Positions 1-54,326 of a stretch of DNA of 64,000 nt are shown in pieces. The notes under the pieces were generated by a model. The model was not told where the DNA came from, did no database searches, and saw only the letters and a list, made by a program, of their open reading frames with translations. This DNA is from Eledone cirrhosa. Its lineage: Eukaryota. Numbering within the stretch: position 1 is the stretch's first letter; the number at the start of each line of letters is the position of its first letter. Location of the stretch: the NCBI GenBank assembly GCA_964016885.1, contig OZ024750.1, positions 40,734,001-40,798,000 of the forward strand, given 5' to 3'. Both the position numbers and the translations under genes were made by a program.

Positions 1-558
1 TTCTTAGCGTCGTGTCTCTTTTGATTTCTTGTGGGGAGGTGATTGTGAAGTCTCCTCCTTCTTTGAAAGTTACATACTGTTTCGCTTCCTTCATCTTTTC
101 TCTCAGAGTTGTAATGTCCAGTTGCTTGCAGGTTTGTGTTTTCCGGACCGCCTGTGCAAAGGAGGCACCAGTAGTGGGTTCGCTTTGTTTGGTGTTATCG
201 TTATTTTTTCCTTGGTTGGTGTTGTGACTATTGCTGTTATTGTCGTTGTTGTTTTTGTCTGCGTTTATGTGACTTTCTGGGTTTTCACCCATTTTTACAA
301 ATTTTTCTTTTAATTCCGTGTTCCATGTTTCTTTTGCAGAAGTCAGGAGGGAAGACTTAGAGCCTTGTGCTTCTAGCTTCTCTGTATCACCTTTCTTAGG
401 GGGCGTGGCTTTCACGTTAGGATGAGATGTGAAAATTCCGTCCATTTCTATTAGTTTGCCGTAATAAATTTTAAACTGGAAAATTCGCCCCAAAAAGGGG
501 CGAAAATGAATAAACTCAAAGTTTGACGACCAAGGCAAGGGGTTAACGTATATTACAG

Positions 559-594
<36 letters not shown>

Positions 595-677
595 CAAAAC
601 TCACTTTTTGAGTAAGTAAATCCGACTCGGTAGCCAAGCTTGTTCACACACGTCAACACACGTCTCTCGTATACGAG
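1..677 (-). mobile_element. Tx1/L1-type non-LTR retrotransposon, copy 0 (5' UTR and ORF1 N-terminus; continues beyond window start)
   Basis: Near-identical to 5721-6376 and ~12062-12738; ORF1 ATG (MDGIFTSH) at 445; same 5' junction to the 72-bp repeat. Confidence 0.93.
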
Positions 678-742: not shown

Positions 743-979
743 GGTTTCTTTATTTGCCACTAGGGCACAAAAGGTAGGGACAGATACAAGGGGGGAAGTT
801 TACATATAATTAACGAGTACAAAAATATAACAATGAAATAACAACAACAAACGAAGTCCTCAATAGGGAGGGGGCATTAACATGGGTCGCACACACCCCG
901 GAAAAAATGTGTAACCCTTCTCCTCAGGAGCACAAAGAGTAGGTGCTTCCCTCGTCTCCTCTTTTTCCTCTTCTTTCAC

Positions 980-3900: not shown

Positions 3901-4411
3901 GGCCGATTAACCTTTTGAGGCTTTTACACCCCCCTCTATTGGCACATGCCCCTACATAGTCCCAACGTGCATCCAGGATACCATTCCAGTCCCCCACTAA
4001 AAGCAAGGAGCGGGACGTTCCCAGAAAAGTTTCCAGACGTTGGAAGTATTCCGGCTGCGCTGCCCAAAAAGGGGCATACACAGCTATTAGTCTAAGGGCT
4101 CCACTTTCACTACTGCCGACGTCTAAAACCACCAGTCGACCCTCCGGGTCAAGGTGCACCTTCTGTATGGCGAGGCCCAGGTGTTTTTGCAGCAGAACGA
4201 CAACTCCACCCCCACCCCCCGGTTGACAGAGAGATGCGAAGATCTCAAAGTCGTCGAAGAGGGGCGCCAGTTGGTGCTCGCTGCTGATCCTGGACTCGCA
4301 AATAGCCATTACATCCATTCTATGCGACCTGAGATCGTTTAAAAGTTTGCCTTGTTTCCAAGACAGTCCCAGGCCACGTACATTCAGACACCCAACTCTT
4401 ATATCAGCCAT
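980..4411 (-). CDS. ORF2 polyprotein: APE endonuclease + reverse transcriptase + C-terminal Cys/His finger (1143 aa, intact)
   Basis: APE motifs LNVRG, AICE, VYAP, GDWN, YLDRV, YSDH; RT motifs SPGLDG, FRPITLLN, DQSKAFDRVDH, RQGCPLS, YADD, KLLGV; HPSKGGLG and CPRC...HAFVHC typical of L1/Tx1 ORF2. Confidence 0.96.
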   Translation of the reverse strand: MADIRVGCLNVRGLGLSWKQGKLLNDLRSHRMDVMAICESRISSEHQLAPLFDDFEIFASLCQPGGGGGVVVLLQKHLGLAIQKVHLDPEGRLVVLDVGSSESGALRLIAVYAPFWAAQPEYFQRLETFLGTSRSLLLVGDWNGILDARWDYVGACANRGGCKSLKRLIGRFDLADRYRLDFPTVPLWTWTNRSGTSRSYLDRVLVRENDRDTFSCPKMFMVDYSDHKLVTCIANLDRTHRQGPGYWKLNLSLPRSKAYSKRISTLVKQSLTGAIVNNRWWSSLKRAIRIESIGFSQELARDRNKTERELVDRVEEAIRSGNVAGVLASRMALDQFFEVKHEGCVVRSKIRALGNEGAKAVSWARVTEAKSGNKSTIRSLKDQDGRVILEPGQMCAAFQRHFARLFERGGAPGETMDFNPYLDGLPRLSDAKSCERTISAAEIGAALSQCGKRKSPGLDGLPYELYVAMPDLFSDILEAVYCNWQQNGRIPSSVTKGVVMLVRKDENKGDDISNFRPITLLNTELKILAKVLAKRLALVVGNLVGEAQTCAIPSRSIHDNLHLMRYIIERVGNEPGFGGALINLDQSKAFDRVDHRYLDAVLAAAGFGPVFRGWIAAMHSSNVCSRVKVNGHLSEPFQIMRSIRQGCPLSSLLYVLALEPLLRKLERLQGIPLEPGLQKAASAYADDVTVMVSKTSQIGEIGTLLEEYERFTGVKLNRDKSVGLQLGTWRGKPMPSNDVVGRWTEGPVKLLGVWFGPDLQVEKNWNEVTARVFALTQKWAQCKLSLKGRAEVANTYIASVIYYRLTVVPCPVKRLAKMECALFQFLWNKRTPLVRRSICCQHPSKGGLGMPWLQMRKHALRLRHLQVFLTGQPVWAPFVRRAFPRLVSLTELQSWVKQRPRKVGDWHIECAQALTALWKADPAISGDSTSTFYRGLVCSRCDDALGEALGMEEDELASLFGRTFGPGPMDNFQKSLAWQCYRGALPVRDKLHRHGSLGRDPLNKICPRCVHDDETVAHAFVHCPGIADLWGYVQRLLSRVGPIRLTTESIVTIKPPPPFKNEGEAVFLCVVAMAKEVVWWTRLKGLRSDTFLSGQQLVPFFKYHFKRRIRMEREVLYPSKFYERWVKVGRMARVNGSSLYISL

Positions 4412-4432
4412 GTTGGTTAAAAGAGGAAGGAC

Positions 4433-6165
4433 CTACCTGTTCGGTTCCTGAGGAGCAGGTTGCACAATATCCATGGGCGTATTGGAGGGGTTGTTTGGTG
4501 GGGTGTTGTTCTGTGGTGGAGTGGGGGTGTTTGGTGAGGTGTGGGTGGGGAAACGTTTCAAGAGGACGCGGTTATAGGGTCGAGTACATGTTTTCCCCAC
4601 GTCCTCAGGAAAGTTCTCTCTTAGTTTTGCATAGGTGTCCATTGGGAGTCTTATCATTTTTAAATGCGGTTTGTTGGCCGCGCTTGCAAAGAATTGCCCT
4701 TCAGTTTCCACCAAAGGGTCTTTGTGTATTGTTTTTACTAGTTCTTTGTTATTTGTGTTAATGTATGTATACTGTTTTATTTGTGTTGTGTTTGTTTGTT
4801 GTTCTTGTGTGTGCTTACGTTTTGTTGTATGTGTTATGTTTTGGGGTGGGGCGGATTTTGTTTGTTCTGTTTGTTTTGTTTTTGTTGGTGGTTGTGTGTT
4901 TGTTTCGTTTATGTTCGAGTGGTGCTTTCTTTTTTTTTCCTTTTTACAGGTTGGAAGGGTTCCCCCTCTTCGTCACTAGGTGCCGTTTCCGCTGGGTCCT
5001 CGTCCGTGCTGTCGGGTAGTGGTGTATTTTGGGGTTTTGTTGTACTTGTGTGTGTTTTGGGAGTTGTTTTGGGTGGGGCCGTGTCTTGTGTTATTTTTCC
5101 GTGTTGTTTTTGTTGTTGTAGTGGTGGTGGTGGTGGTGGTGGTGGTGGCGGTGGTGGTGTGTGGGGTGTAGGCAAAAGAGCCTTTTTTTTTGTCAATTGA
5201 GGACAAGCAGCCCTTAGATGACCCCTGCTTGAACAGTAGTAACATATGGGCCTCCTACCCTCGGCTGAAATATATATAAATGTTTCTCCATCGAGGGACA
5301 CCTTCTGTGGTATTCTAGCTATTCGTTCTGGTTTCATTTGGACCAGAACCTCCACGCTCAAACCGCCGAAAACGTCTGTGGTGACTTCTCCTACTGAGAG
5401 GATTCCGTCCTCGTCTTCTAAAAATCCTGTTAGTACCCAGGAAATGCATGCATTTGGCCGGATTCCGGAGACCCTTATCTTCTGCGTTCTTTTCCCTAAA
5501 TATGTGGGGAAAAATGTATGTAGCTTGGAAACAATTGGTGCCACAGAGTATTTCCTGGCCGTCAATTGATCCTTCATTAGGACCGTTATATTCCCATAGA
5601 GTGGCCCTTTTTGTATGAACGATATATCACTCCACACATTTTTTAGGACCAGCTCAATCTCTTTTTGGGATAATTGAGTTGGTTTCCTTGTTATGTTGGA
5701 AATTGTTCTGAAAGATATCGTTCTTAGCGTCGTGTCTCTTTTGATTTCTTGTGGGGAGGTGATTGTGAAGTCTCCTCCTTCTTTGAAAGTTACATACTGT
5801 TTCGCTTCCTTCATCTTTTCTCTCAGAGTTGTAATGTCCAGTTGCTTGCAGGTTTGTGTTTTCCGGACCGCCTGTGCAAAGGAGGCACCAGTAGTGGGTT
5901 CGCTTTGTTTGGTGTTATCGTTATTTTTTCCTTGGTTGGTGTTGTGACTATTGCTGTTATTGTCGTTGTTGTTTTTGTCTGCGTTTATGTGACTTTCTGG
6001 GTTTTCACCCATTTTTACAAATTTTTCTTTTAATTCCGTGTTCCATGTTTCTTTTGCAGAAGTCAGGAGGGAAGACTTAGAGCCTTGTGCTTCTAGCTTC
6101 TCTGTATCACCTTTCTTAGGGGGCGTGGCTTTCACGTTAGGATGAGATGTGAAAATTCCGTCCAT
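4433..6165 (-). CDS. ORF1 gag-like nucleic-acid-binding protein (~576 aa if corrected), frameshifted at A9 run 4930-4938
   Basis: CX2CX4HX4C knuckle CYYCSSRGHLRAAC, Pro/Thr-rich tail; split into ORFs 4909..6258 and 4433..4714; copy 2 has A7 here and reads through. Confidence 0.85.
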
Positions 6166-6376
6166 TTCTATTAGTTTGCCGTAATAAATTTTTAACTGGA
6201 AAATTCGCCCCAAAAAGGGGCGAAAATAAATAAACTCAAAGTTTGACGACCAAGGCAAGGGGTTAACGTATATTACAGTATAAAAAAATTAATCAAAACT
6301 CACTTTTTGAGTAAGTAAATCCGACTCGGTAGCCGAGCTTGTTCACACACGTCAACACACGTCTCTCGTATACGAG

Positions 6377-7089
6377 ATGTTATGTGAGATATTATGTGAG
6401 GTAAAGCCTTTACTGTGAAAATACAATAGTATATATAGAGTAATGTAAATGTTATGTGAGATATTATGTGAGGTAAAGCCTTTACTGTGAAAATACAATA
6501 GTATATATAGAGTAATGTAAATGTTCTGTGAGATATTATGTGAGGTAAAGCCTTTACTGTGAAAATACAATAGTATATATAGAGTAATGTAAATGTTCTG
6601 TGAGATATTATGTGAGGTAAAACCTTTACTGTGAAAATACAATAGTATATATAGAGTAATGTAAATGTTATGTGAGATATTATGTGAGGTAAAACCTTTA
6701 CTGTGAAAATACAATAGTATATATAGAGTAATGTAAATGTTATGTGAGATATTATGTGAGGTAAAGCTTTTACTGTGAAAATACAATAGTATATATAGAG
6801 TAATGTAAATGTTATGTGAGATATTATGTGAGGTAAAGCTTTTACTGTGAAAATACAATAGTATATATAGAGTAATGTAAATGTTATATGAGATATTATG
6901 TGAAGTAAAGCCTTTACTGTGAAAATACAATAGTATATATAGAGTAATGTAAATGTTATGTGAGATATTATGTGAGGTAAAGCCTTTACTGTGAAAATAC
7001 AATAGTATATATAGAGTAATGTAAATGTTATGTGAGATATTATGTGAGGTAAAGCCTTTACTGTGAAAATACAATAGTATATATAGAGT
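6377..7089. repeat. 72-bp tandem repeat, 10 units minus 7 bp (713 bp), MITE-derived
   Basis: Exact 72-bp period (gttatgtgag at 6379, 6451, ...). Confidence 0.97.
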
Positions 7090-7326
7090 GGTTTCTTTAT
7101 TTGCCACTAGGGCACAAAAGGTAGGGACAGATACAAGGGGGGAAGTTTACATATAATTAACGAGTACAAAAATATAACAATGAAATAACAACAACAAACG
7201 AAGTCCTCAATAGGGAGGGGGCATTAACATGGGTCGCACACACCCCGGAAAAAATGTGTAACCCTTCTCCTCAGGAGCACAAAGAGTAGGTGCTTCCCTC
7301 GTCTCCTCTTTTTCCTCTTCTTTCAC

Positions 7327-10300
7327 CTACAAGCTGATATAGAGAGAAGACCCATTCACTCTGGCCATTCTCCCTACTTTCACCCACCTTTCATAAAACT
7401 TGCTGGGGTAGAGCACCTCTCTCTCCATTCTGATCCTTCTTTTAAAATGGTATTTGAAAAAGGGGACCAGTTGTTGGCCGGAGAGAAAGGTGTCTGACCT
7501 CAGCCCTTTCAGCCTCGTCCACCATACAACTTCTTTAGCCATGGCTACCACACAGAGAAAAACCGCCTCTCCTTCGTTTTTGAAAGGGGGAGGCGGTTTG
7601 ATCGTGACAATGGACTCGGTGGTCAACCGGATTGGTCCCACCCTCGACAGTAGTCGTTCCACATAGCCCCACAGGTCAGCAATGCCTGGGCAGTGTACGA
7701 ATGCGTGCGCAACGGTTTCGTCATCATGCACGCATCTCAGACAGATCTTATTCAAAGGATCTCTACCCAGGCTCCCATGCCTGTGGAGCTTGTCTCGAAC
7801 GGGTAGAGCCCCTCGGTAGCACTGCCAAGCCAGGGACTTTTGGAAGTTGTCCATCGGTCCAGGGCCAAACGTCCTACCGAACAGACTGGCCAGTTCAACT
7901 TCCTCCATGCCTAGAGCTTCTCCGAGAGCATCGTCGCACCTGCTGCGTACCAACCCTCTATAGAATGTCGAGGTGGAGTCTCCACTGATTGCCGGGTCCG
8001 CTTTCCAGAGGGCCGTGAGCGCCTGGGCACATTCAATGTGCCAGTCGCCCGCTTTTCTCGGTCTTTGCTTGACCCAGGATTGCAGCTCGGTGAGCGAGAC
8101 GAGTCTGGGAAAGGCTCGCCTCACAAACGGGGCCCACACCGGTTGACCGGTGAGGAATACCTGGAGGTGCCGTAGCCTTAATGCGTGTTTACGCATCTGT
8201 AGCCACGGCATCCCCAGCCCTCCTTTCGAAGGGTGTTGACAGCAGATGGATCTCCTCACCAAAGGGGTCCGCTTGTTCCAAAGAAATTGGAACAGCGCGC
8301 ACTCCATTTTGGCGAGTCTTTTCACTGGGCAAGGCACGACGGTCAAGCGGTAGTAGATGACGGATGCTATATAAGTATTCGCCACCTCCGCTCGACCTTT
8401 CAGGGATAGTTTGCACTGGGCCCACTTCTGGGTGAGTGCAAACACCCTGGCCGTTACCTCGTTCCAGTTTTTCTCCACCTGGAGGTCTGGTCCGAACCAG
8501 ACCCCAAGCAGCTTCACCGGGCCCTCCGTCCAGCGTCCGACGACGTCGTTGGAGGGCATCGGTTTGCCTCTCCATGTTCCGAGTTGCAAACCGACGGACT
8601 TGTCCCGGTTCAGCTTGGCTCCTGTAAACCTTTCATATTCCTCCAGTAAGGTGCCGATCTCACCGATTTGCGAGGTTTTCGACACCATTACTGTCACGTC
8701 ATCGGCGTAGGCCGACGCCGCTTTCTGCAATCCCGGTTCCAAAGGGATGCCCTGCAACCGCTCCAACTTCCGCAGTAGTGGCTCAAGAGCCAGCACATAC
8801 AGTAGGGAGGAGAGAGGGCATCCCTGTCGGATGGATCGCATGATTTGGAACGGCTCCGAGAGGTGGCCGTTCACCTTGACCCTTGAGCAGACGTTGCTGC
8901 TGTGCATCGCAGCAATCCAACCCCTGAAAACGGGTCCGAAGCCTGCCGCCGCGAGCACCGCATCCAGGTAACGATGGTCAACCCTATCGAAAGCTTTAGA
9001 TTGATCCAAGTTGATCAGGGCCCCACCAAAGCCGGGTTCATTCCCTACCCTCTCTATGATGTATCGCATAAGGTGGAGATTGTCGTGAATGGACCTGGAC
9101 GGGATTGCGCATGTCTGCGCTTCTCCCACCAGGTTTCCAACGACAAGCGCCAACCTCTTCGCTAACACCTTGGCCAAAATCTTTAACTCTGTATTTAGCA
9201 GAGTTATGGGCCTGAAGTTACTTATGTCATCCCCCTTGTTCTCATCCTTCCTCACCAGCGTAACTACGCCCTTGGTCACAGAACTGGGAATTCTCCCGTT
9301 CTGCTGCCAGTTGCAGTAGACCGCTTCGAGGATATCGGAGAACAAGTCCGGCATCGCTACATATAGCTCGTATGGTAGACCATCGAGACCCGGGGATTTG
9401 CGTTTGCCGCATTGGCTCAGCGCCGCCCCTATCTCAGCAGCTGAAATCGTCCTTTCGCAGGACTTCGCCTCCGCGTCCGAGAGGCGCGGCAGACCGTCGA
9501 GGTATGGATTGAAATCCATAGTCTCACCCGGCGCGCCGCTCCTCTCGAACAGTCGTGCAAAGTGCCGCTGAAAGGCCGCACACATCTGCCCAGGTTCAAG
9601 GATCACACGCCCATCCTGGTCCTTCAAAGACCGAATCGTGGACTTGTTCCCACTTTTTGCCTCTGTCACTCGGGCCCAGCTTACAGCTTTGGCTCCCTCA
9701 TTACCCAGAGCACGTATTTTACTTCTGACAACGCAGCCTTCATGCTTCACCTCAAAGAACTGGTCTAAGGCCATTCTTGATGCCAGCACGCCGGCTACAT
9801 TGCCACTCCTAATCGCCTCTTCTACTCTATCTACTAATTCCCTTTCCGTCTTGATCCTATCCCTTGCTAATTCCTGACTAAAACCTATCGATTCTATTCT
9901 AATTGCTCTCTTAAGAGAGCTCCACCACCTGTTGTTGACAATTGCCCCTGTCAAACTCTGCTTAACTAACGTGCTAATCCGTTTACTGTAAGCTTTGCTT
10001 CTCGGTAAGGACAAGTTCAGTTTCCAGTAACCGGGTCCCTGTCTATGGGTTCTATCAAGGTTGGCTATGCAGGTCACTAACTTGTGATCCGAATAGTCAA
10101 CCATGAACATTTTTGGACAGCTAAATGTGTCCCTATCGTTCTCTCTAACTAGGACCCTATCTAGGTACGACCTAGATGTTCCACTGCGATTGGTCCACGT
10201 CCATAGTGGTACAGTCGGAAAATCTAGTCGATATCTATCGGCCAGGTCAAATCGGCCGATTAACCTTTTGAGGCTTTTACACCCCCCTCTATTGGCACAT

Positions 10301-10764
10301 GCCCCTACATAGTCCCAACGTGCATCCAGGATACCATTCCAGTCCCCCACTAAAAGCAAGGAGCGGGACGTTCCCAGAAAAGTTTCCAGACGTTGGAAGT
10401 ATTCCGGCCGCGCTGCCCAAAAAGGGGCGTACACAGCTATTAGTCTAAGGGCTCCACTTTCACTACTGCCGACGTCTAAAACCACCAGTCGACCCTCCGG
10501 GTCCAGGTGCACCTTCTGTATGGCGAGGCCCAGGTATTTTCGCAGCAGAACGACAACTCCACCCCCACCCCCCGGTTGACAGAGAGATGCGAAGATCTCA
10601 AAGTCGTCGAAGAGGGGCGCCAGTTGGTGCTCGCTGCTGATCCTGGACTCGCAAATAGCCATTACATCCATTCTATGCGACCTGAGATCGTTTAAAAGTT
10701 TGCCTTGTTTCCAAGACAGTCCCAGGCCACGTACATTCAGACACCCAACTCTTATATCAGCCAT
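7327..10764 (-). CDS. ORF2 APE+RT+Zn finger (1145 aa, intact)
   Basis: Same motifs as copy 1; CLRC instead of CPRC. Confidence 0.96.
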   Translation of the reverse strand: MADIRVGCLNVRGLGLSWKQGKLLNDLRSHRMDVMAICESRISSEHQLAPLFDDFEIFASLCQPGGGGGVVVLLRKYLGLAIQKVHLDPEGRLVVLDVGSSESGALRLIAVYAPFWAARPEYFQRLETFLGTSRSLLLVGDWNGILDARWDYVGACANRGGCKSLKRLIGRFDLADRYRLDFPTVPLWTWTNRSGTSRSYLDRVLVRENDRDTFSCPKMFMVDYSDHKLVTCIANLDRTHRQGPGYWKLNLSLPRSKAYSKRISTLVKQSLTGAIVNNRWWSSLKRAIRIESIGFSQELARDRIKTERELVDRVEEAIRSGNVAGVLASRMALDQFFEVKHEGCVVRSKIRALGNEGAKAVSWARVTEAKSGNKSTIRSLKDQDGRVILEPGQMCAAFQRHFARLFERSGAPGETMDFNPYLDGLPRLSDAEAKSCERTISAAEIGAALSQCGKRKSPGLDGLPYELYVAMPDLFSDILEAVYCNWQQNGRIPSSVTKGVVTLVRKDENKGDDISNFRPITLLNTELKILAKVLAKRLALVVGNLVGEAQTCAIPSRSIHDNLHLMRYIIERVGNEPGFGGALINLDQSKAFDRVDHRYLDAVLAAAGFGPVFRGWIAAMHSSNVCSRVKVNGHLSEPFQIMRSIRQGCPLSSLLYVLALEPLLRKLERLQGIPLEPGLQKAASAYADDVTVMVSKTSQIGEIGTLLEEYERFTGAKLNRDKSVGLQLGTWRGKPMPSNDVVGRWTEGPVKLLGVWFGPDLQVEKNWNEVTARVFALTQKWAQCKLSLKGRAEVANTYIASVIYYRLTVVPCPVKRLAKMECALFQFLWNKRTPLVRRSICCQHPSKGGLGMPWLQMRKHALRLRHLQVFLTGQPVWAPFVRRAFPRLVSLTELQSWVKQRPRKAGDWHIECAQALTALWKADPAISGDSTSTFYRGLVRSRCDDALGEALGMEEVELASLFGRTFGPGPMDNFQKSLAWQCYRGALPVRDKLHRHGSLGRDPLNKICLRCVHDDETVAHAFVHCPGIADLWGYVERLLSRVGPIRLTTESIVTIKPPPPFKNEGEAVFLCVVAMAKEVVWWTRLKGLRSDTFLSGQQLVPFFKYHFKRRIRMEREVLYPSKFYERWVKVGRMARVNGSSLYISL

Positions 10765-10785
10765 GTTGGTTAAAAGAGGAAGGAC

Positions 10786-12505
10786 CTACCTGTTCGGCTC
10801 CTGAGGAGCAGGTTGCACAATATCCATGGGCGTATTGGAGGGGTTGTTTGGTGGGGTGTTGTTCTGTGGTGGAGTGGGGGTGTTTGGTGAGGTGTGGGTG
10901 GGGAAACGTTTCAAGAGGACGCGGTTATAGGGTCGAGTACATGTTTTCCCCACGTCCTCAGGAAAGTTCTCTCTTAGTTTTGCATAGGTGTCCATTGGGA
11001 GTCTTATCATTTTTAAATGCGGTTTGTTGGCCGCGCTTGCAAAGAATTGCCCTTCAGTTTCCACCAAAGGGTCTTTGTGTATTGTTTTTACTAGTTCTTT
11101 GTTATTTGTGTTAATGTATGTATACTGTTTTATTTGTGTTGTGTTTGTTTGTTGTTCTTGTGTGTGCTTATGTTTTGTTGTATGTGTTATGTTTTGGGGT
11201 GGGGCGGATTTTGTTTGTTCTGTTTGTTTTGTTTTTGTTGGTGGTTGTGTGTTTGTTTCGTTTATGTTCGAGTGATGCTTTCTTTTTTTCCTTTTTACAG
11301 GTTGGAAGGGTTCCCCCTCTTCGTCACTAGGTGCCGTTTCCGCTGGGTCCTCGTCCGTGCTGTCGGGTAGTGGTGTATTTTGGGGTTTTGTTGTATTTGT
11401 GTGTGTTTTGGGAGTTGTTTTGGGTGGGGCCGTGTCTTGTGTTATTTTTCCGTGTTGTTTTTGTTGTTGTTGTTGTGGTGGTGGTGGTGGCGGTGGTGGT
11501 GTGTGGGGTGTAGGCAAAAGAGCCTTTTTTTTTTGTCAATTGAGGACAAGCAGCCCTTAGATGACCCCTGCTTGAACAGTAGTAACATATGGGCCTCCTA
11601 CCCTCGGCTGAAATATATATAAATGTTTCTCCATCGAGGGACACCTTCTGTGGTATTCTAGCTATTCGTTCTGGTCTCATTTGGACCAGAACCTCCACGC
11701 TCAAACCGCCGAAAACGTCTGTGGTGACTTCTCCTACTGAGAGGATTCCGTCCTCGTCTTCTAAAAATCCTGTTAGTACCCAGGAAATGCATGCATTTGG
11801 CCGGATTCCGGAGACCCTTATCTTCTGCGTTCTTTTCCCTAAATATGTGGGGAAAAATGTATGTAGCTTGGAAACAATTGGTGCCACAGAGTATTTCCTG
11901 GCCGTCAATTGATCCTTCATTAGGACCGTTATATTCCCATAGAGTGGCCCTTTTTGTATGAACGATATATCACTCCACACATTTTTTAGGACCAGCTCAA
12001 TCTCTTTTTGGGATAATTGAGTTGGTTTCCTTGTTATGTTGGAAATTGTTCTGAAAGATATCGTTCTTAGCGTCGCGTCTCTTTTGATTTCTTGTGGGGA
12101 GGTGATTGTGAAGTCTCCTCCTTCTTTGAAAGTTACATACTGTTTCGCTTCCTTCATCTTTTCTCTCAGAGTTGTAATGTCCAGTTGCTTGCAGGTTTGT
12201 GTTTTCCGGACCGCCTGTGCAAAGGAAGCACCAGTAGTGGGTTCGCTTTGTTTGGTGTTATCGTTATTTTTTCCTTGGTTGGTGTTGTGACTATTGCTGT
12301 TATTGTCGTTGTTTTTGTCTACGTTTATGTGACTTTCTGGGTTTTCACCCATTTTTACAAATTTTTCTTTTAATTCCGTGTTCCATGTTTCTTTTGCAGA
12401 AGTCAGGAGGGAAGACTTAGAGCCTTGTGCTTCTAGCTTCTCTGTATCACCTTTCTTAGGGGGCGTGGCTTTCACGTTAGGATGAGATGTGAAAATTCCG
12501 TCCAT
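10786..12505 (-). CDS. ORF1 gag-like CCHC protein, frameshifted at A10 run 11525-11534
   Basis: Split into ORFs 11327..12658 and 10786..11517; copies 1 and 3 have A9 at this site and stay in frame. Confidence 0.85.
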
Positions 12506-12618
12506 TTCTATTAGTTTGCCGTAATAAATTTTAAACTGGAAAATTCGCCCCAAAAAGGGGCGAAAATGAATAAACTCAAAGTTTGACGACCAAGGCAAGG
12601 GGTTAACGTATATTACAG

Positions 12619-12655
<37 letters not shown>

Positions 12656-12738
12656 CAAAACTCACTTTTTGAGTAAGTAAATCCGACTCGGTAGCCAAGC
12701 TTGTTCACACACGTCAACACACGTCTCTCGTATACGAG

Positions 12739-12803
12739 ATGTTATGTGAGATATTATGTGAGGTAAAGCCTTTACTGTGAAAATACAATAGTATATATAG
12801 AGT
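12739..12803. repeat. 65-bp partial unit of the 72-bp repeat
   Basis: Identical to 678-742. Confidence 0.95.
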
Positions 12804-13040
12804 GGTTTCTTTATTTGCCACTAGGGCACAAAAGGTAGGGACAGATACAAGGGGGGAAGTTTACATATAATTAACGAGTACAAAAATATAACAATGAAAT
12901 AACAACAACAAACGAAGTCCTCAATAGGGAGGGGGCATTAACATGGGTCGCACACACCCCGGAAAAAATGTGTAACCCTTCTCCTCAGGAGCACAAAGAG
13001 TAGGTGCTTCCCTCGTCTCCTCTTTTTCCTCTTCTTTCAC

Positions 13041-16000
13041 CTACAGGCTGATATAGAGAGAAGACCCATTCACTCTGGCCATTCTCCCTACTTTCACCCA
13101 CCTTTCATAAAACTTGCTGGGGTAGAGCACCTCTCTCTCCATTCTGATCCTTCTTTTAAAATGGTATTTGAAAAAGGGGACCAGTTGTTGGCCGGAGAGA
13201 AAGGTGTCTGACCTCAGCCCTTTCAGCCTCGTCCACCATACAACTTCTTTAGCCATGGCTACCACACAGAGAAAAACCGCCTCTCCTTCGTTTTTGAAAG
13301 GGGGAGGCGGTTTGATCGTGACAATGGACTCGGTGGTCAACCGGATTGGTCCCACCCTCGACAGTAGTCGTTGCACATAGCCCCACAGGTCAGCAATGCC
13401 TGGGCAGTGTACGAATGCGTGCGCAACGGTTTCGTCATCATGCACGCATCTCGGACAGATCTTATTCAAAGGATCTCTACCCAGGCTCCCATGCCTGTGG
13501 AGCTTGTCTCGAACAGGTAGAGCCCCTCGGTAGCACTGCCAAGCCAGGGACTTTTGGAAGTTGTCCATCGGTCCAGGGCCAAACGTCCTACCGAACAGAC
13601 TGGCCAGTTCATCTTCCTCCATGCCTAGAGCTTCTCCGAGAGCATCGTCGCACCTGCTGCGTACCAACCCTCTATAGAATGTCGAGGTGGAGTCTCCACT
13701 GATTGCCGGGTCCGCTTTCCAGAGGGCCGTGAGCGCCTGGGCACATTCAATGTGCCAGTCGCCCACTTTTCTCGGTCTTTGCTTGACCCAGGATTGCAGC
13801 TCGGTGAGCGAGACGAGTCTAGGAAAGGCTCGCCTCACAAACGGGGCCCACACCGGTTGACCGGTGAGGAATACCTGGAGGTGCCGTAGCCTTAATGCGT
13901 GTTTACGCATCTGTAGCCACGGCATCCCCAGCCCTCCTTTCGAAGGGTGTTGACAGCAGATGGATCTCCTCACCAAAGGGGTTCGCTTGTTCCAAAGAAA
14001 TTGGAACAGCGCGCACTCCATTTTGGCGAGTCTTTTCACTGGGCAAGGCACGACGGTCAAGCGGTAGTAGATGACGGATGCTATATAAGTATTCGCCACC
14101 TCCGCTCGACCTTTCAGGGATAGTTTGCACTGGGCCCACTTCTGGGTGAGTGCAAACACCCTGGCCGTTACCTCGTTCCAGTTTTTCTCCACCTGGAGGT
14201 CTGGTCCGAACCAGACCCCAAGCAGCTTCACCGGGCCCTCCGTCCAGCGTCCGACGACGTCGTTGGAGGGCATCGGTTTGCCTCTCCATGTTCCGAGTTG
14301 CAAACCGACGGACTTGTCCCGGTTCAGCTTGACTCCTGTAAACCTTTCATATTCCTCCAGTAAGGTGCCGATCTCACCGATTTGCGAGGTTTTCGACACC
14401 ATTACTGTCACGTCATCGGCGTAGGCCGACGCCGCTTTCTGCAATCCCGGTTCCAAAGGGATGCCCTGCAACCGCTCCAACTTCCGCAGTAGTGGCTCAA
14501 GAGCCAGCACATACAGTAGGGAGGAGAGAGGGCATCCCTGTCGGATGGATCGCATGATTTGGAACGGCTCCGAGAGGTGGCCGTTCACCTTGACCCTTGA
14601 GCAGACGTTGCTGCTGTGCATCGCAGCAATCCAACCCCTGAAAACGGGTCCGAAGCCTGCCGCCGCGAGCACCGCATCCAGGTAACGATGGTCAACCCTA
14701 TCGAAAGCTTTAGATTGATCCAAGTTGATCAGGGCCCCACCAAAGCCGGGTTCATTCCCTACCCTCTCTATGATGTATCGCATAAGGTGGAGATTGTCGT
14801 GAATGGACCTGGACGGGATTGCGCATGTCTGCGCTTCTCCCACCAGGTTTCCAACGACAAGCGCCAACCTCTTCGCTAACACCTTGGCCAAAATCTTTAA
14901 CTCTGTATTTAGCAGAGTTATGGGTCTGAAGTTACTTATGTCATCCCCCTTGTTCTCATCCTTCCTCACCAGCATAACTACGCCCTTGGTCACAGAACTG
15001 GGAATTCTCCCGTTCTGCTGCCAGTTGCAGTAGACCGCTTCGAGGATATCGGAGAACAAGTCCGGCATCGCTACATATAGCTCGTATGGTAGACCATCGA
15101 GACCCGGGGATTTGCGTTTGCCGCATTGGCTCAGCGCCGCCCCTATCTCAGCAGCTGAAATCGTCCTTTCGCAGGACTTCGCGTCCGAGAGGCGCGGCAG
15201 ACCGTCGAGGTATGGATTGAAATCCATAGTCTCACCCGGCGCGCCGCCCCTCTCGAACAGTCGTGCAAAGTGCCGCTGAAAGGCCGCACACATCTGCCCA
15301 GGTTCAAGGATCACACGCCCATCCTGGTCCTTCAAAGACCGAATCGTGGACTTGTTCCCACTTTTTGCCTCTGTCACTCGGGCCCAGCTCACAGCTTTGG
15401 CTCCCTCATTACCCAGAGCACGTATTTTACTCCTGACAACGCAGCCTTCATGCTTCACCTCAAAGAACTGGTCTAAGGCCATTCTTGATGCCAGCACGCC
15501 GGCTACATTGCCACTCCTAATCGCCTCTTCTACTCTATCTACTAATTCCCTTTCCGTCTTGTTCCTATCCCTTGCTAATTCCTGACTAAAACCTATCGAT
15601 TCTATTCTAATTGCTCTCTTAAGAGAGCTCCACCACCTGTTGTTGACAATTGCCCCTGTCAAACTCTGCTTAACTAACGTGCTAATCCGTTTACTGTAAG
15701 CTTTGCTTCTCGGTAAGGACAAGTTCAGCTTCCAGTAACCGGGTCCCTGTCTATGGGTTCTATCAAGGTTGGCTATGCAGGTCACTAACTTGTGATCCGA
15801 ATAGTCAACCATGAACATTTTTGGACAGCTAAATGTGTCCCTATCGTTCTCTCTAACTAGGACCCTATCTAGGTACGACCTAGATGTTCCACTGCGATTG
15901 GTCCACGTCCATAGTGGTACAGTCGGAAAATCTAGTCGATATCTATCGGCCAGGTCAAATCGGCCGATTAACCTTTTGAGGCTTTTACACCCCCCTCTAT

Positions 16001-16472
16001 TGGCACATGCCCCTACATAGTCCCAACGTGCATCCAGGATACCATTCCAGTCCCCCACTAAAAGCAAGGAGCGGGACGTTCCCAGAAAAGTTTCCAGACG
16101 TTGGAAGTATTCCGGCTGCGCTGCCCAAAAAGGGGCATACACAGCTATTAGTCTAAGGGCTCCACTTTCACTACTGCCGACGTCTAAAACCACCAGTCGA
16201 CCCTCCGGGTCAAGGTGCACCTTCTGTATGGCGAGGCCCAGGTGTTTTTGCAGCAGAACGACAACTCCACCCCCACCCCCCGGTTGACAGAGAGATGCGA
16301 AGATCTCAAAGTCGTCGAAGAGGGGCGCCAGTTGGTGCTCGCTGCTGATCCTGGACTCGCAAATAGCCATTACATCCATTCTATGCGACCTGAGATCGTT
16401 TAAAAGTTTGCCTTGTTTCCAAGACAGTCCCAGGCCACGTACATTCAGACACCCAACTCTTATATCAGCCAT
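13041..16472 (-). CDS. ORF2 APE+RT+Zn finger (1143 aa, intact)
   Basis: Same motifs as copy 1. Confidence 0.96.
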   Translation of the reverse strand: MADIRVGCLNVRGLGLSWKQGKLLNDLRSHRMDVMAICESRISSEHQLAPLFDDFEIFASLCQPGGGGGVVVLLQKHLGLAIQKVHLDPEGRLVVLDVGSSESGALRLIAVYAPFWAAQPEYFQRLETFLGTSRSLLLVGDWNGILDARWDYVGACANRGGCKSLKRLIGRFDLADRYRLDFPTVPLWTWTNRSGTSRSYLDRVLVRENDRDTFSCPKMFMVDYSDHKLVTCIANLDRTHRQGPGYWKLNLSLPRSKAYSKRISTLVKQSLTGAIVNNRWWSSLKRAIRIESIGFSQELARDRNKTERELVDRVEEAIRSGNVAGVLASRMALDQFFEVKHEGCVVRSKIRALGNEGAKAVSWARVTEAKSGNKSTIRSLKDQDGRVILEPGQMCAAFQRHFARLFERGGAPGETMDFNPYLDGLPRLSDAKSCERTISAAEIGAALSQCGKRKSPGLDGLPYELYVAMPDLFSDILEAVYCNWQQNGRIPSSVTKGVVMLVRKDENKGDDISNFRPITLLNTELKILAKVLAKRLALVVGNLVGEAQTCAIPSRSIHDNLHLMRYIIERVGNEPGFGGALINLDQSKAFDRVDHRYLDAVLAAAGFGPVFRGWIAAMHSSNVCSRVKVNGHLSEPFQIMRSIRQGCPLSSLLYVLALEPLLRKLERLQGIPLEPGLQKAASAYADDVTVMVSKTSQIGEIGTLLEEYERFTGVKLNRDKSVGLQLGTWRGKPMPSNDVVGRWTEGPVKLLGVWFGPDLQVEKNWNEVTARVFALTQKWAQCKLSLKGRAEVANTYIASVIYYRLTVVPCPVKRLAKMECALFQFLWNKRTPLVRRSICCQHPSKGGLGMPWLQMRKHALRLRHLQVFLTGQPVWAPFVRRAFPRLVSLTELQSWVKQRPRKVGDWHIECAQALTALWKADPAISGDSTSTFYRGLVRSRCDDALGEALGMEEDELASLFGRTFGPGPMDNFQKSLAWQCYRGALPVRDKLHRHGSLGRDPLNKICPRCVHDDETVAHAFVHCPGIADLWGYVQRLLSRVGPIRLTTESIVTIKPPPPFKNEGEAVFLCVVAMAKEVVWWTRLKGLRSDTFLSGQQLVPFFKYHFKRRIRMEREVLYPSKFYERWVKVGRMARVNGSSLYISL

Positions 16473-16493
16473 GTTGGTTAAAAGAGGAAGGAC

Positions 16494-18226
16494 CTACCTG
16501 TTCGGTTCCTGAGGAGCAGGTTGCACAATATCCATGGGCGTATTGGAGGGGTTGTTTGGTGGGGTGTTGTTCTGTGGTGGAGTGGGGGTGTTTGGTGAGG
16601 TGTGGGTGGGGAAACGTTTCAAGAGGACGCAGTTATAGGGTCGAGTACATGTTTTCCCCACGTCCTCAGGAAAGTTCTCTCTTAGTTTTGCATAGGTGTC
16701 CATTGGGAGTCTTATCATTTTTAAATGCGGTTTGTTGGCCGCGCTTGCAAAGAATTGCCCTTCAGTTTCCACCAAAGGGTCTTTGTGTATTGTTTTTACT
16801 AGTTCTTTGTTATTTGTGTTAATGTATGTATACTGTTTTATTTGTGTTGTGTTTGTTTGTTGTTCTTGTGTGTGCTTACGTTTTGTTGTATGTGTTATGT
16901 TTTGGGGTGGGGCGGATTTTGTTTGTTCTGTTTGTTTTGTTTTTGTTGGTGGTTGTGTGTTTGTTTCGTTTATGTTCGAGTGGTGCTTTCTTTTTTTTTC
17001 CTTTTTACAGGTTGGAAGGGTTCCCCCTCTTCGTCACTAGGTGCCGTTTCCGCTGGGTCCTCGTCCGTGCTGTCGGGTAGTGGTGTATTTTGGGGTTTTG
17101 TTGTACTTGTGTGTGTTTTGGGAGTTGTTTTGGGTGGGGCCGTGTCTTGTGTTATTTTTCCGTGTTGTTTTTGTTGTTGTAGTGGTGGTGGTGGTGGTGG
17201 TGGTGGTGGCGGTGGTGGTGTGTGGGGTGTAGGCAAAAGAGCCTTTTTTTTTGTCAATTGAGGACAAGCAGCCCTTAGATGACCCCTGCTTGAACAGTAG
17301 TAACATATGGGCCTCCTACCCTCGGCTGAAATATATATAAATGTTTCTCCATCGAGGGACACCTTCTGTGGTATTCTAGCTATTCGTTCTGGTTTCATTT
17401 GGACCAGAACCTCCACGCTCAAACCGCCGAAAACGTCTGTGGTGACTTCTCCTACTGAGAGGATTCCGTCCTCGTCTTCTAAAAATCCTGTTAGTACCCA
17501 GGAAATGCATGCATTTGGCCGGATTCCGGAGACCCTTATCTTCTGCGTTCTTTTCCCTAAATATGTGGGGAAAAATGTATGTAGCTTGGAAACAATTGGT
17601 GCCACAGAGTATTTCCTGGCCGTCAATTGATCCTTCATTAGGACCGTTATATTCCCATAGAGTGGCCCTTTTTGTATGAACGATATATCACTCCACACAT
17701 TTTTTAGGACCAGCTCAATCTCTTTTTGGGATAATTGAGTTGGTTTCCTTGTTATGTTGGAAATTGTTCTGAAAGATATCGTTCTTAGCGTCGTGTCTCT
17801 TTTGATTTCTTGTGGGGAGGTGATTGTGAAGTCTCCTCCTTCTTTGAAAGTTACATACTGTTTCGCTTCCTTCATCTTTTCTCTCAGAGTTGTAATGTCC
17901 AGTTGCTTGCAGGTTTGTGTTTTCCGGACCGCCTGTGCAAAGGAGGCACCAGTAGTGGGTTCGCTTTGTTTGGTGTTATCGTTATTTTTTCCTTGGTTGG
18001 TGTTGTGACTATTGCTGTTATTGTCGTTGTTGTTTTTGTCTGCGTTTATGTGACTTTCTGGGTTTTCACCCATTTTTACAAATTTTTCTTTTAATTCCGT
18101 GTTCCATGTTTCTTTTGCAGAAGTCAGGAGGGAAGACTTAGAGCCTTGTGCTTCTAGCTTCTCTGTATCACCTTTCTTAGGGGGCGTGGCTTTCACGTTA
18201 GGATGAGATGTGAAAATTCCGTCCAT
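16494..18226 (-). CDS. ORF1 gag-like CCHC protein, frameshifted at A9 run 16991-16999
   Basis: Same as copy 1. Confidence 0.85.
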
Positions 18227-18437
18227 TTCTATTAGTTTGCCGTAATAAATTTTTAACTGGAAAATTCGCCCCAAAAAGGGGCGAAAATAAATAAACTCAA
18301 AGTTTGACGACCAAGGCAAGGGGTTAACGTATATTACAGTATAAAAAAATTAATCAAAACTCACTTTTTGAGTAAGTAAATCCGACTCGGTAGCCGAGCT
18401 TGTTCACACACGTCAACACACGTCTCTCGTATACGAG

Positions 18438-19604
18438 ATGTTATGTGAGATATTATGTGAGGTAAAGCCTTTACTGTGAAAATACAATAGTATATATAGA
18501 GTAATGTAAATGTTATGTGAGATATTATGTGAGGTAAAGCCTTTACTGTGAAAATACAATAGTATATATAGAGTAATGTAAATGTTCTGTGAGATATTAT
18601 GTGAGGTAAAGCCTTTACTGTGAAAATACAATAGTATATATAGAGTAATGTAAATGTTCTGTGAGATATTATGTGAGGTAAAACCTTTACTGTGAAAATA
18701 CAATAGTATATATAGAGTAATGTAAATGTTATGTGAGATATTATGTGAGGTAAAACCTTTACTGTGAAAATACAATAGTATATATAGAGTAATGTAAATG
18801 TTATGTGAGATATTATGTGAGGTAAAGCTTTTACTGTGAAAATACAATAGTATATATAGAGTAATGTAAATGTTATGTGAGATATTATGTGAGGTAAAGC
18901 TTTTACTGTGAAAATACAATAGTATATATAGAGTAATGTAAATGTTATATGAGATATTATGTGAAGTAAAGCCTTTACTGTGAAAATACAATAGTATATA
19001 TAGAGTAATGTAAATGTTATGTGAGATATTATGTGAGGTAAAGCCTTTACTGTGAAAATACAATAGTATATATAGAGTAATGTAAATGTTATGTGAGATA
19101 TTATGTGAGGTAAAGCCTTTACTGTGAAAATACAATAGTATATATAGAGTAATGTAAATGTTATGTGAGATATTATGTGAGGTAAAGCCTTTACTGTGAA
19201 AATACAATAGTATATATAGAGTAATGTAAATGTTATGTGAGATATTATGTGAGGTAAAGCCTTTACTGTGAAAATACAATAGTATATATAGAGTAATGTA
19301 AATGTTATGTGAGATATTATGTGAGGTAAAGCCTTTACTGTGAAAATACAATAGTATATATAGAGTAATGTAAATGTTCTGTGAGATATTATGTGAGGTA
19401 AAGCCTTTACTGTGAAAATACAATAGTATATATAGAGTAATGTAAATGTTCTGTGAGATATTATGTGAGGTAAAACCTTTACTGTGAAAATACAATAGTA
19501 TATATAGAGTAATGTAAATGTTATGTGAGATATTATGTGAGGTAAAACCTTTACTGTGAAAATACAATAGTATAGATAGAATAATGTAAATGGTAAAGGG
19601 TTAA
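18438..19604. repeat. 72-bp tandem array (16 units, 18438-19589) ending in the piggyBac-like MITE terminus atggtaaagggTTAA
   Basis: 72-bp period; terminus matches MITE ends at 28212, 41461, 41855 and (reverse complement) 42880, 50232. Confidence 0.93.
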
Positions 19605-27770: not shown

Positions 27771-27997
27771 CTAACCTTTTACCATTCACATTACTCGATA
27801 TTTACTGTTGTAATTTTGTGGTAAAGGCTTTATCTCGCATAATATCTCACATAAGATCAAATCTATGAGATTTTGATAGTATTTATTTTGAGAACAATAC
27901 CTTAGCATCAGTATGAGTGACCTGTCAGGGCCGGTTTGAACAAAAGAGGTGAGAGAATTCTGGTCAGATACGGCCAGTTTAAATGCTAAAGGGTTAA
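27771..27997 (+). mobile_element. ~225-bp piggyBac-like MITE (family A), simple copy
   Basis: Ends (t)taaccYtttaccatt... / ...aaatgctaaagggttaa; contains one copy of the 72-bp unit sequence. Confidence 0.85.
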
Positions 27998-28017
27998 ATC
28001 CTAGTTTGCAGAATTCT

Positions 28018-28212
28018 CCAGAATTCTCTCACCTCTTTCTGTTCAAACTGGCCGTGACTGGCCATTCATACTGATGTTAAGGTACTGTTCTCAAAATAAA
28101 TGATATCAAAATCTCATAGCTTCAATATTATGTGAGATGATTATGTGAGATAAAGCCTTTACTATGAAAATACAATAGTAAATATAAAGTAATGCAAATG
28201 CTAAAGGGTTAA
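28018..28212 (-). mobile_element. MITE family A, partial, inverted relative to its neighbour
   Basis: ccagaattctctcacc...gtaatgcaaatgctaaagggttaa. Confidence 0.85.
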
Positions 28213-40407: not shown

Positions 40408-40920
40408 ATTAACCTTTCTAATGAAAGATACTGCCTATGTATTTAACCCTTTCATTACCATATCTCTAATGAAAGACACTGTCTATGTCATTAACCCCTT
40501 CATTACCATATTTCTAATGAAAGACACTGTCTATGTCTTTAACCCTTTCATTGCCATATTTCTAATGAAAGAGACTGCCTATGTCATTAACCCTTTCATT
40601 GCCATATTTCTAATGAAAGACACTACCTATGTCATTAACTCTTTCATTACCATATTTCTAACGAAAGACACTACCTATGTCTTTAACCCCTTCATTACCA
40701 TATTTCTAATGAAAGACACTACCTGTCTTTAACCCCTTCATTACCATATTTCTAATGAAAGACACTGCCTATGTATTTAACCCCTTCATTACCATATTTC
40801 TAATGAAAGACACTGTCTTTGTCATTAACCCCTTCATTACCATATTTCTAATGAAAGACACTGTCTTTGTCATTAACCCTTTCACTATATATTTCTGATG
40901 AAAGACACTCACCATGGTTT
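40408..40920. repeat. 48-bp tandem amplification of a ttaaccc- MITE terminus (family B)
   Basis: ttaaccc at 40443, 40491, 40539, ... Confidence 0.8.
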
Positions 40921-41245: not shown

Positions 41246-41461
41246 CATTTAAACCAGCCATATCCGGCCAGAATTCTCTCACCTCTTTCTGTTCAAACTG
41301 GCTGTAACTGGCCACTCATACTGATGTTAAGTTATTGTTCTCAAAATAAATATCATCAAAATCTCATAATTCAATATTATGTAAGATAATTATGTAAGGT
41401 AAAGCCTTTACCGTGAAAATATAATAGTAAATATACAGTAATGTAAATGCTAAAGGGTTAA
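41246..41461 (-). mobile_element. MITE family A
   Basis: Matches 27771-27997 in reverse complement; ends taaagggttaa. Confidence 0.85.
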
Positions 41462-41639: not shown

Positions 41640-41855
41640 TTAACCTTTTAGCATTTAAACCAGTCGTATTCGGCCAGAATTATCTCACCTCTTTCTGTTC
41701 AAACCGGCCATAACTGGTTGCTCATACTTATATTAAGGTATTGTTCTCAAAATAAATAATATGAAAATCTCGTAAATTCGATATCATGTAAGATAAAGCC
41801 TTTACCACAAAAATACAATAGAAAATATAGAGTAATGTAAATGGTTAAAGGTTAA
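41640..41855 (-). mobile_element. MITE family A, complete
   Basis: ttaaccttttagcattta ... taaatggttaaaggttaa. Confidence 0.88.
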
Positions 41856-42492: not shown

Positions 42493-42879
42493 TACAAACA
42501 AATTACATTTGCTAGAAATTTAATTAAAATCTGAAAATGTTGATTTAAGTTAAAAAGAAATTTAAACCTGAATTTGAAAACATATTTAACATTTCAGCAA
42601 TCTATTTCTATGGTGATATATAACAGCATGATATCATCTGATATCATCTTGATATCTCTACGCTGCTGTCACTCACATTCACAGTTAAAGAAATACTCAT
42701 TTAAAATGAAGATGCCACAATTATGATAATGAAATTCTAACGAATCTTAAATGTTAAGGCGATAAATATAGAGAAATTAATAATGTTCGTATGTTGATTT
42801 ATTTAAGAAGTTTTCGAACAAGAGGTCAGGGTGAGAGGAACTGAGTAATTAAATTATTTTTGTTCTGAATCAGATCTCT

Positions 42880-43106
42880 TTAACCCTTTAACATTCACAT
42901 TACTCTATATTTACTATTTATTTTTGTAGTTAAAGGCTTTATCTTACATAATTATCTCACATAATATCGAATCTATGAGATTTTGATAATATTTATTTTG
43001 AGATCTACCTTAACATAAATATGAGCAGCTGATTATGGCTGGTTTAAACAGAAAGAGGTGAGAGAATTCTGGCTGGATATGGCTGGTTTAAATGCTAACG
43101 GGTTAA
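42880..43106 (+). mobile_element. MITE family A, complete
   Basis: ttaaccctttaacattcacattactctata ... aaatgctaacgggttaa. Confidence 0.88.
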
Positions 43107-43199
43107 GACGCTAAATATAGAGAAATTTAAAATGTTAGTATGTTGATTTATTTAAGAAGTTCTTGAACAAGAGATCAGGGTGAGATGAACTGAGTATCA

Positions 43200-50231: not shown

Positions 50232-50807
50232 TTAACCCTTTACTATTTACATTACTCTATATATACTATTATATTTTCACAGTAAAGGTTTTACCTCACA
50301 TAATATCTCACATAACATTTACATTACTCTATATATACTATTGTATTTTCACAGTAAAGGCTTTACCTCACATAATATCTTACATAATATTTACATTACT
50401 CTATATATACTATTATATTTTCACAGTAAAGGCTTTACCTCACATAATATCTTACATAATATTTACATTACTCTATATATACTATTGTATTTTCACAGTA
50501 AAGGCTTTACCTCACATAATATCTCACATAACATTTACATTACTCAATATATTATTTTTGCATTTTCACAGTAAAGGCTTTACCTCACATAATATCTTAC
50601 ATAATATTTACATTAGTCTATATATACTATTATATTTTCATGTTAAAGGTTTTACCTCACATAATATCGAATCTACAAGATATTGATATTATTTATTTTG
50701 GGAACAATACCTTAACATCAGTATGAGTTGCCAGTTACAACTGGTTTGAAAGGAAAGAGGTGAGAGAATTCTGGCCAGATATGCCGGTTTAAATGCTAAA
50801 GGGTTAA
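50232..50807 (+). mobile_element. MITE family A with an internal 72-bp expansion (~6 units) and no LINE insertion
   Basis: ttaacccttta..., 72-bp units from 50246, 50318, 50390, ..., then normal MITE body to aaatgctaaagggttaa. Confidence 0.92.
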
Positions 50808-53889: not shown

Positions 53890-54031
53890 TTCCCACTCTA
53901 CTACCCTAAGTATTGAGTACTTTGGTGCGTTATGGTCCACCTGGTTCCTTACCACAATTCCTTTGTTATATATATATATGAATATATATATATGTATGTG
54001 TGTATATATATATGTATAAGCCATTTTTCAT

Positions 54032-54201
54032 TCATCATCATCATCATCATCATCATACGTCCGCTTTTCCCTGCTTGCAAGGGTGGGACAGGTCTTATTC
54101 AGCACAGCATCTCTCCACTCGTCACGGTCCTTCATCATCTCCTCCGTGAGCTTCAACGATTTGAGGTCTGTACTCACCACCTCCGCCCATGTTTTTCGTG
54201 G
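54032..54201 (-). pseudogene. Extreme 3' end of an RTE LINE (partner of SINE family 1)
   Basis: Reverse translation [37 protein letters not shown], running into cccacccttgcaagcagggaaaagcggacgta(tga)n. Confidence 0.85.
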
Positions 54202-54236
<35 letters not shown>

Positions 54237-54326
54237 GTATATGTATGTATATATATATATATGTATGTATATATATATATATGTATGTATATATATATAT
54301 ATATATGTATGTATATATATATATAT

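Follow-up and report, generated by a model that had tools for sequence, protein, structure and literature searches.

Organisation of the expanded element and its single-unit relatives

The element at positions 50232-50807 of the window, i.e. of the whole analysed stretch of 64,000 nucleotides, is an expanded MITE of 576 bp with TTAA at both ends (Table 1). Its ends match as inverted repeats in 16 of 18 bases, which results in a 14-bp TIR starting with CCC at both ends, and this TIR recurs in three other complete copies. A random-pair control yielded 109 matches in 200000, a number probably inflated by TA microsatellites; therefore, it is the recurrence in four copies that argues for the reality of the TIR. 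Between the ends, TRF detected 5.9 units of 72 bp, and the approximately six tandem units between intact TTAA ends that a first-pass annotation of this DNA had reported were thus found again. The array possesses five joints, two of the C type and three of the T type, and the exact 10-bp core of the LINE junctions described below occurs at 50249, 50321, 50393 and 50465. The unique arm deviates by 9.3% from the leave-one-out majority, and those of the simple copies deviate by 7.5-12.2%.

Table 1. Coordinates of the MITE, satellite and LINE features in the window.
Feature	Position	Strand	Remarks
LINE copy L0, 5' part	1..677	-	mosaic: B-type alleles to ~205, A-type from ~417
LINE copy L1, 5634 bp	743..6376	-	duplicate; 2 substitutions from L3
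9.9-unit array	6377..7089	-	identical to 18438-19150 (0/713 differences); belongs to the 12,061-bp duplication
LINE copy L2, 5649 bp, haplotype B	7090..12738	-	ORF2 with APE endonuclease, RT and zf-RVT; 35 substitutions from A
Spacer of 65 bp separating tandem LINEs (7 bp less than a unit)	12739..12803	-	same spacer at 678-742
LINE copy L3, 5634 bp, haplotype A	12804..18437	-	CCHC knuckle in ORF1; ORF2 spans 1150 codons from stop to stop
72-bp array, 16 units	18438..19592	-	mean pairwise identity 97.9%; TRF
Left TIR and TTAA of the LINE-bearing expanded element	19587..19604	-	opposite end beyond the window
Single-unit MITE, 227 bp	27771..27997	+	one base altered in the left TTAA
Single-unit MITE, far TIR lost	28018..28212	-	20 bp from the 27771 copy, in tail-to-tail orientation
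Single-unit MITE, far TIR eroded	41246..41461	-	several array-type bases in common
Single-unit MITE, 216 bp, TTAA at both ends	41640..41855	-	exact 19-mer matching the surroundings of the LINE 3' junction
Single-unit MITE, 227 bp, TTAA at both ends	42880..43106	+	exact 10-bp junction core
TTAA (50232-50235) and 14-bp left TIR (50236-50249)	50232..50249	+	last TIR bases double as start of unit 1
72-bp array, 5 full units and a last unit without the second 12-bp sub-repeat	50244..50668	+	no LINE
Unique arm, common to the simple MITEs	50669..50789	+	82-86% identity
Right TIR (50790-50803) and TTAA (50804-50807)	50790..50807	+	16/18 match to the left end

BLAST analysis with the unit and the unique arm revealed five single-unit relatives within the window. 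The first-pass annotation had correctly recognised simple MITEs of about 225 bp, but had counted three and overlooked the copies at 28018-28212 and 41246-41461. It had also ascribed to each simple copy the 72-bp sequence once; a single unit next to the TIR is present, but the 216-bp copy at 41640-41855 lacks the second 12-bp sub-repeat and thus does not hold the whole 72-mer. The homology of the 72-mer to the subterminal region of the MITE, which had been presupposed, was confirmed by identities of 83-92% between the unit and the single-unit copies (74-102 bits; best of 20 shuffles 29.2 bits). The family is short, non-coding, repeated and uniform, with complete simple copies of 216-227 bp. The 42880 copy carries the 14-bp TIR starting with CCC at both ends, and in the other copies one base is changed at some ends.

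Some further observations concern the surroundings of these copies. The region 27771-28212 comprises two tail-to-tail copies, one of which is cut at the palindrome AGAATTCT. The 42880 copy is flanked by a 94-bp direct repeat (42754-42847 and 43103-43196; 90%) starting at TTAA, which is possibly a duplication linked to transposition or repair. A diverged fragment of a MITE right arm (36251-36327) starts at the TTAA where an array of 60 units of 55 bp (32952-36253) ends. This 55-bp array at 33-36 kb was considered as a second MITE-internal satellite and was rejected, as it lies outside the adjoining MITE end.

With regard to the superfamily, piggyBac-type elements have short TIRs beginning with CCC, and the TIRs of Kolobok and T2-MITE elements, which also use TTAA, begin with two purines. 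The TIR found here begins with CC, unlike those of Kolobok and T2-MITE elements. The family is regarded as a non-autonomous, piggyBac-like TTAA family, with piggyBac as the presumed superfamily. Empty paralogous TTAA sites were not detected for any of the three elements tried (42880, 50232 and 41640). After complexity filtering, 52 ORFs were obtained; Pfam analysis of 49 of these (at least 70 amino acids, beyond 19.6 kb) revealed no transposase family, and the other three were scanned separately. Three weak Pfam matches in the filtered ORFs (YoaL, DUF4125 and fn2) were taken as chance.

The window contains additional repeats. A further satellite of TIR origin may be present at 40415-40909, where 10.4 units of 48 bp form an array; each unit includes TTAACCC(C/T)TT, which is similar to the MITE end. 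A 99-bp array of 8.8 units (37216-38083, 96% identity) may be coding, since its period is a multiple of three. A short dispersed repeat beginning at (ATC)n microsatellites was detected at 19640-19740 and at 11 other sites and is probably the end of an abundant SINE.

Structure and classification of the LINE

The second expanded element is occupied by LINEs. Its array at 18438-19592 (16.0 units of 72 bp by TRF) and the associated LINEs were as the first-pass annotation had stated, with one end of the element (19587-19604) inside the window. In this array, the variant pattern of units 1-5 is repeated at units 12-16 and represents an 11-unit (792-bp) higher-order duplication.

ORF2 of the LINE comprises 1150-1152 codons from stop to stop, and its only Pfam domains are Exo_endo_phos, RVT_1 and zf-RVT. 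ORF1 shows a CX2CX4HX4C knuckle in all three full copies, whereas no Pfam family was assigned to it and a database search yielded no homolog at E≤0.001. The ORF1 frame is interrupted at an A-run, which is a different one in each LINE haplotype (e.g. 4909-6288 and 11327-12661, minus strand). The LINE has no poly(A) tail, and haplotype B carries a long T-run in the 5' UTR. In the Tx1 clade, ORF1 has a gag-like CCHC knuckle instead of the L1-type ORF1. The ORF2 layout of this clade (APE endonuclease, RT, C-terminal zinc motif, no RNase H) is also present in the LINE. The best PDB match of ORF2 was L1 ORF2p (E 3e-53, vs R2 with 3e-23), a result that does not separate L1 from Tx1, and a weak named match (24%) was obtained with the 'Transposon TX1 149 kDa protein'. 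Named protein matches in the RT search were from Argonauta (67%) and cuttlefish (50%), which makes an octopod the probable host. For Octopus vulgaris, 13 recently active L1-Tx1 families and 6 piggyBac families are reported (excerpt of PMC13282606). The LINE is a young, APE-type member of the L1 group, probably of the Tx1 clade.

A sister LINE at about 60660-62274 (plus strand) matches the 3'-terminal 1.5 kb of the LINE at 83% identity and has the same 3' end. Its 5' UTR is weakly similar and probably homologous (score 53; none of 500 shuffles reached it, the best giving 50), and the element seems to have lost a large internal part. It is located in a 24-bp TCTG-based minisatellite (60184-60657 and 62276-64000). 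This location in another tandem repeat would be in keeping with a LINE lineage that inserts into tandem repeats and changes from one to another, with the limit that one copy cannot show specificity. A 478-codon frame at 53917-55353 (plus strand), which encodes an RT fragment and a PHD finger, is a piece of a different LINE.

LINE junctions within the satellite unit

The LINE junctions are located in the start of the unit, AT^TTACATT^ACTCT, 2 and 9 bases inside it. All four 5' junctions follow ...CATAACAT, and the three 3' junctions precede ACTCT. It is likely that the LINE inserts by target-primed reverse transcription at this fixed site, 2-9 bp inside the unit. The cacataac joint between units had been proposed as the insertion point and as a product of amplification. 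Its restriction to amplified copies was verified, as each of its 27 occurrences in the window belongs to an array and none to the five simple copies. Insertion at the joint was not, as the junctions lie inside the unit, in a stretch that is present in the simple copies.

The same 65-mer stands on both sides of each of the three full LINEs, and it alone makes up the spacer between tandem LINEs. A 7-bp truncation of the target and a 65-bp duplication are indistinguishable here, since both give the same sequence in a 72-bp array. It is conceivable, if not favoured, that the LINE duplicates 65 bp of its target, or brings along 65 nt of 5' flanking sequence, instead of causing a 7-bp deletion; this would be compatible with the explanation preferred below. 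The tandem LINEs 65 bp apart would then be sequential insertions around the duplication, and a single-unit target would become two-unit-looking. The identity of the flanking 65 nt in all three full LINEs, though only 7 of the 16 units of the 18-kb array equal the consensus, is in line with this duplication, as are the tandem insertions sandwiching the TSD in the Tx1-mobilised SINEU-3 (excerpt of PMC4494074). However, the truncation accounts for the same sequence, the three LINEs are not independent, and target truncations are reported for SINEU-2 (excerpt of PMC4494074). Such a duplication by the LINE was also rejected as the origin of the satellite, whose period is 72 and not 65.

The duplication would have a consequence for any comparison of copies. 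If a single-unit target yields two unit-like segments, LINEs would be seen only in copies with two or more units whether simple MITEs are immune or not. Unit counts are thus confounded and must be replaced by diagnostic bases.

Effect of amplification on the insertion site

The first-pass annotation had concluded that amplification creates the target and that simple MITEs may be immune. This was not supported, because the 19-bp site is present with 0-2 mismatches in all five simple copies. In comparison to the array site, these copies showed 1, 2, 1, 0 and 0 mismatches from -5 to +5 of the 3' junction and 2, 2, 1, 0 and 1 mismatches from -10 to +9 (19 bp). Only the stretch from -30 to -11 is new in the array, where 13-16 of 20 bases differ from the simple sites. 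In a single-unit element, the context directly before a hypothetical LINE 3' junction is the TIR followed by ATTTACATT.

Recognition by the APE endonucleases of Tx1L and TRAS1 is reported to involve some 10 bp around the cut (excerpt of PMC1919474), and the recognition length of the present enzyme is presumably comparable. Given this reading length, the conservation of the site in the simple copies and the targeting, by crocodilian Tx1 families, of DNA transposons for which no amplification is described, the expected recognition site predates the amplification. It is therefore likely that amplification multiplied and homogenised a pre-existing site adjacent to the TIR and did not create the target. 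The ancestral MITE would already have contained the insertion site, in a position adjoining the TIR. With amplification, the number of sites in each element would have risen from 1 to 6-17 or more and the sites would have been homogenised, and the old simple copies would have decayed meanwhile.

The counts within the window are without power on the question of immunity. LINE insertions were found in none of five single-unit and in one of two multi-unit elements (Fisher p=0.29, window only), and at equal per-site rates the probability of missing all five simple sites is 0.54-0.86. All four LINE copies use the same site, but they represent one locus and 2-3 events; for Tx1, a family is considered target-specific if >20% of independent copies are flanked by one target type (excerpt of PMC4494074). 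The six-unit element at 50232 is empty of LINEs despite its four exact 10-bp cores.

The bases upstream of the site allow a different reading. The 5' junction of the LINE carries the joint-type C, and none of the five simple copies has C at this column; the observed insertions therefore went into the array. It is possible that the endonuclease recognises more than 10 bp or that upstream RNA-DNA pairing is involved. If the LINE needed sequence farther upstream than -10, as would be the case, e.g., if the preceding unit were where its RNA begins and where the end of the cDNA anneals, the arrays would be the sole targets and the simple MITEs immune. The strong divergence from -30 to -11, the four identical 5' junctions with full length across two haplotypes and the absence of the LINE from all simple copies would agree with such a dependence, and co-transcription with the target strengthens the targeting of R2 (excerpt of PMC4494074). 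We nevertheless consider it unlikely. Both junction points and the surrounding 19 bp pre-exist in the simple copies, the counts cited above are powerless, all LINEs are from one locus, with half of them being duplicates, and the six-unit element is empty.

Duplication within the LINE locus

The region 678-19150 contains a 12,061-bp tandem repeat consisting of two LINEs and satellite units. Positions 678-7089 correspond to 12739-19150 with 2 mismatches in 6412 bases (INDEPENDENCE). L1 and L3 differ by 2 substitutions, and L2 differs from each of them by 35. From these sequence comparisons, the four LINE copies most probably represent one locus with 2-3 insertions and a 12,061-bp tandem duplication. 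After the insertions, an unequal exchange within the array probably duplicated the 12-kb block of LINE and satellite.

The near identity of the block copies might also indicate an assembly artefact, and the ORF1 frames break at different A-runs in each haplotype, as would be expected for homopolymer errors. This explanation is rather improbable, as L0 combines both haplotypes in a mosaic and deviates from L2 in 7 columns over its 677 bases, so that it is no copy of the latter, and the number of independent insertions would be 2-3 in either case.

Origin and amplification of the 72-bp satellite

The satellite unit starts inside the left TIR, and the right TIR mirrors the opening bases of the unit although no satellite adjoins it. 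This argues for an origin of the satellite from the MITE and against its capture; the derivation from the subterminal region proposed by the first-pass annotation and the MITE origin are thus supported by the sequences compared. The same monomer occurs singly in some MITE copies and in tandem in others. In the simple copies, the unit begins with ATT, and ATC or ATT follows downstream; this microhomology of 2-3 bp at the unit ends would fit slippage or a repair duplication.

Several positions separate array units from simple copies. At column 21, all array units but one (21/22) have A, whereas T is found in 5/5 simple copies; C at column 52 (22/22 array units) and A at column 39 (21/22) each occur in only one of the five simple copies. 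The arrays at 50.2 kb and 18.4 kb have the joint and identical units in common. The units of the 50232 array are 93.3% identical to those of the 18-kb array, whereas arrays and simple copies share 83-84% and simple copies among each other 82.6%. In a unit tree of 17 rows, from which 9 duplicated 6.4-kb units and 10 of the 16 units of the 18-kb array had been dropped as redundant, none of the 11 inner branches was starred, and the simple copies formed one side of a branch at 55/0 support. The common joint, identical units and diagnostic bases indicate that both arrays belong to one expanded subfamily and did not result from separate amplifications. Judged by these characters, the 50232 element is most likely an empty member of this subfamily rather than an intermediate caught in place, and the view that three stages of the process are visible in one window was overstated.

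The direction and the mechanism of the amplification can be proposed as follows. In an old family of TTAA MITEs of about 225 bp, the expanded subfamily would have originated once. It would have arisen through head-to-tail duplication of the 72 bp that start inside the left TIR, with slippage or repair at the AT(T) microhomology of 2-3 bp as the probable mechanism. The expanded subfamily apparently moved as a whole element (50232-50807), and the array lengths may have been altered by unequal exchange, as the repeated variant patterns suggest. It is very improbable that the MITE captured a satellite that already existed, as proposed for a pre-existing repeat in miDNA4 (excerpt of PMC12628747), or that the simple copies are contractions of expanded ones, for which the lack of one sub-repeat in both the 41640 copy and the last unit of 50232 could be quoted, as the TIR bases at the unit start are mirrored at the other MITE end, the array base at column 21 is absent from all simple copies, and the simple copies are more diverse (82.6%) than the units within the arrays (90.6-97.9%).

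Comparison with known systems and implications

According to Garrett (1989), Tx1D reportedly consists largely of internal tandem repeats of about 400 bp, into which Tx1L is said to be inserted with a 23-bp duplication. Xenopus Tx1 inserts into Tx1D, a non-autonomous piggyBac family (excerpts of PMC4494074, PMC6719617 and PMC1950540). The likeness, compared by the descriptions in these excerpts, is that of an APE-type two-ORF LINE at a fixed site in a non-autonomous TTAA DNA transposon. In contrast to Xenopus, the host is probably a cephalopod, the carrier is a 225-bp MITE with a 72-bp unit beginning in the TIR, the insertion is accompanied by a 7-bp truncation or a 65-bp duplication, and single-unit ancestors are still visible.

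The Xenopus MITE Xstir/Xmix and miDNA4 likewise occur as single monomers, internal arrays and long arrays; their repeats stem from MITE-internal sequence, and a microhomology-driven expansion was proposed (excerpts of PMC12628747 and PMC9659126). DTC84 of Donax is grouped with these MITE-derived repeats (PMC3879986). They differ from the present case by superfamily and host, and the excerpts do not mention any targeting of the arrays by LINEs. In crocodilians, Tx1-Mar, Tx1-9_AMi and SINEU-3 also show a preference for a fixed position within non-autonomous DNA transposons (Mariner-N4, Harbinger), and tandem insertions sandwich the TSD (excerpt of PMC4494074). Unlike here, these targets are not satellites, and no tandem amplification of them is described in that excerpt; targeting of simple transposons is thus known. 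Tandem repeats with other units are the targets of Kibi ((TC)n), Koshi ((TTC)n) and satellite-targeting Tx1 families (excerpt of PMC4494074), and by this description the sister element at 60.66-62.27 kb in its TCTG-based minisatellite resembles them in the kind of target.

According to the excerpts cited, both phenomena have already been published: the conversion of MITEs into satellites (Xstir, miDNA4) and the targeting of non-autonomous DNA transposons by Tx1 LINEs (Xenopus Tx1/Tx1D, Tx1-Mar). A MITE-born satellite hit by a LINE is an arrangement known from frogs, and the present case is a further instance. Neither this family nor any LINE that targets a MITE satellite in cephalopods was found described in the literature searched, a scope that leaves Repbase and Dfam entries, subscription papers and supplements aside, so that absence from print is not thereby shown. 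A more far-reaching scenario is a Tx1-like cephalopod lineage, independent of Xenopus Tx1/Tx1D, that switches tandem-repeat targets and depends on a satellite born from MITE sequence adjacent to the TIR. In this scenario the upstream unit would be needed for transcription and for annealing of the cDNA, only the expanded subfamily would be colonised, and the array would amplify the LINEs by unequal exchange into megarepeats; at present, this appears improbable.

The locus is a clean example in which the conversion of a MITE into a satellite is joined with a LINE that uses another transposon as a safe haven, and it bears on how sequence-specific LINEs gain new targets. An APE LINE that looks active, is site-specific and has kept ORF2 intact is also modestly interesting with a view to targeted insertion. 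Ancestral single-unit and expanded copies coexist, and a genome-wide count could therefore show whether amplification multiplied the target or was required for it. If the array-dependent reading were true, unamplified ancestors and empty as well as occupied expanded copies would be present side by side, and the birth of a retrotransposon target would be directly testable.
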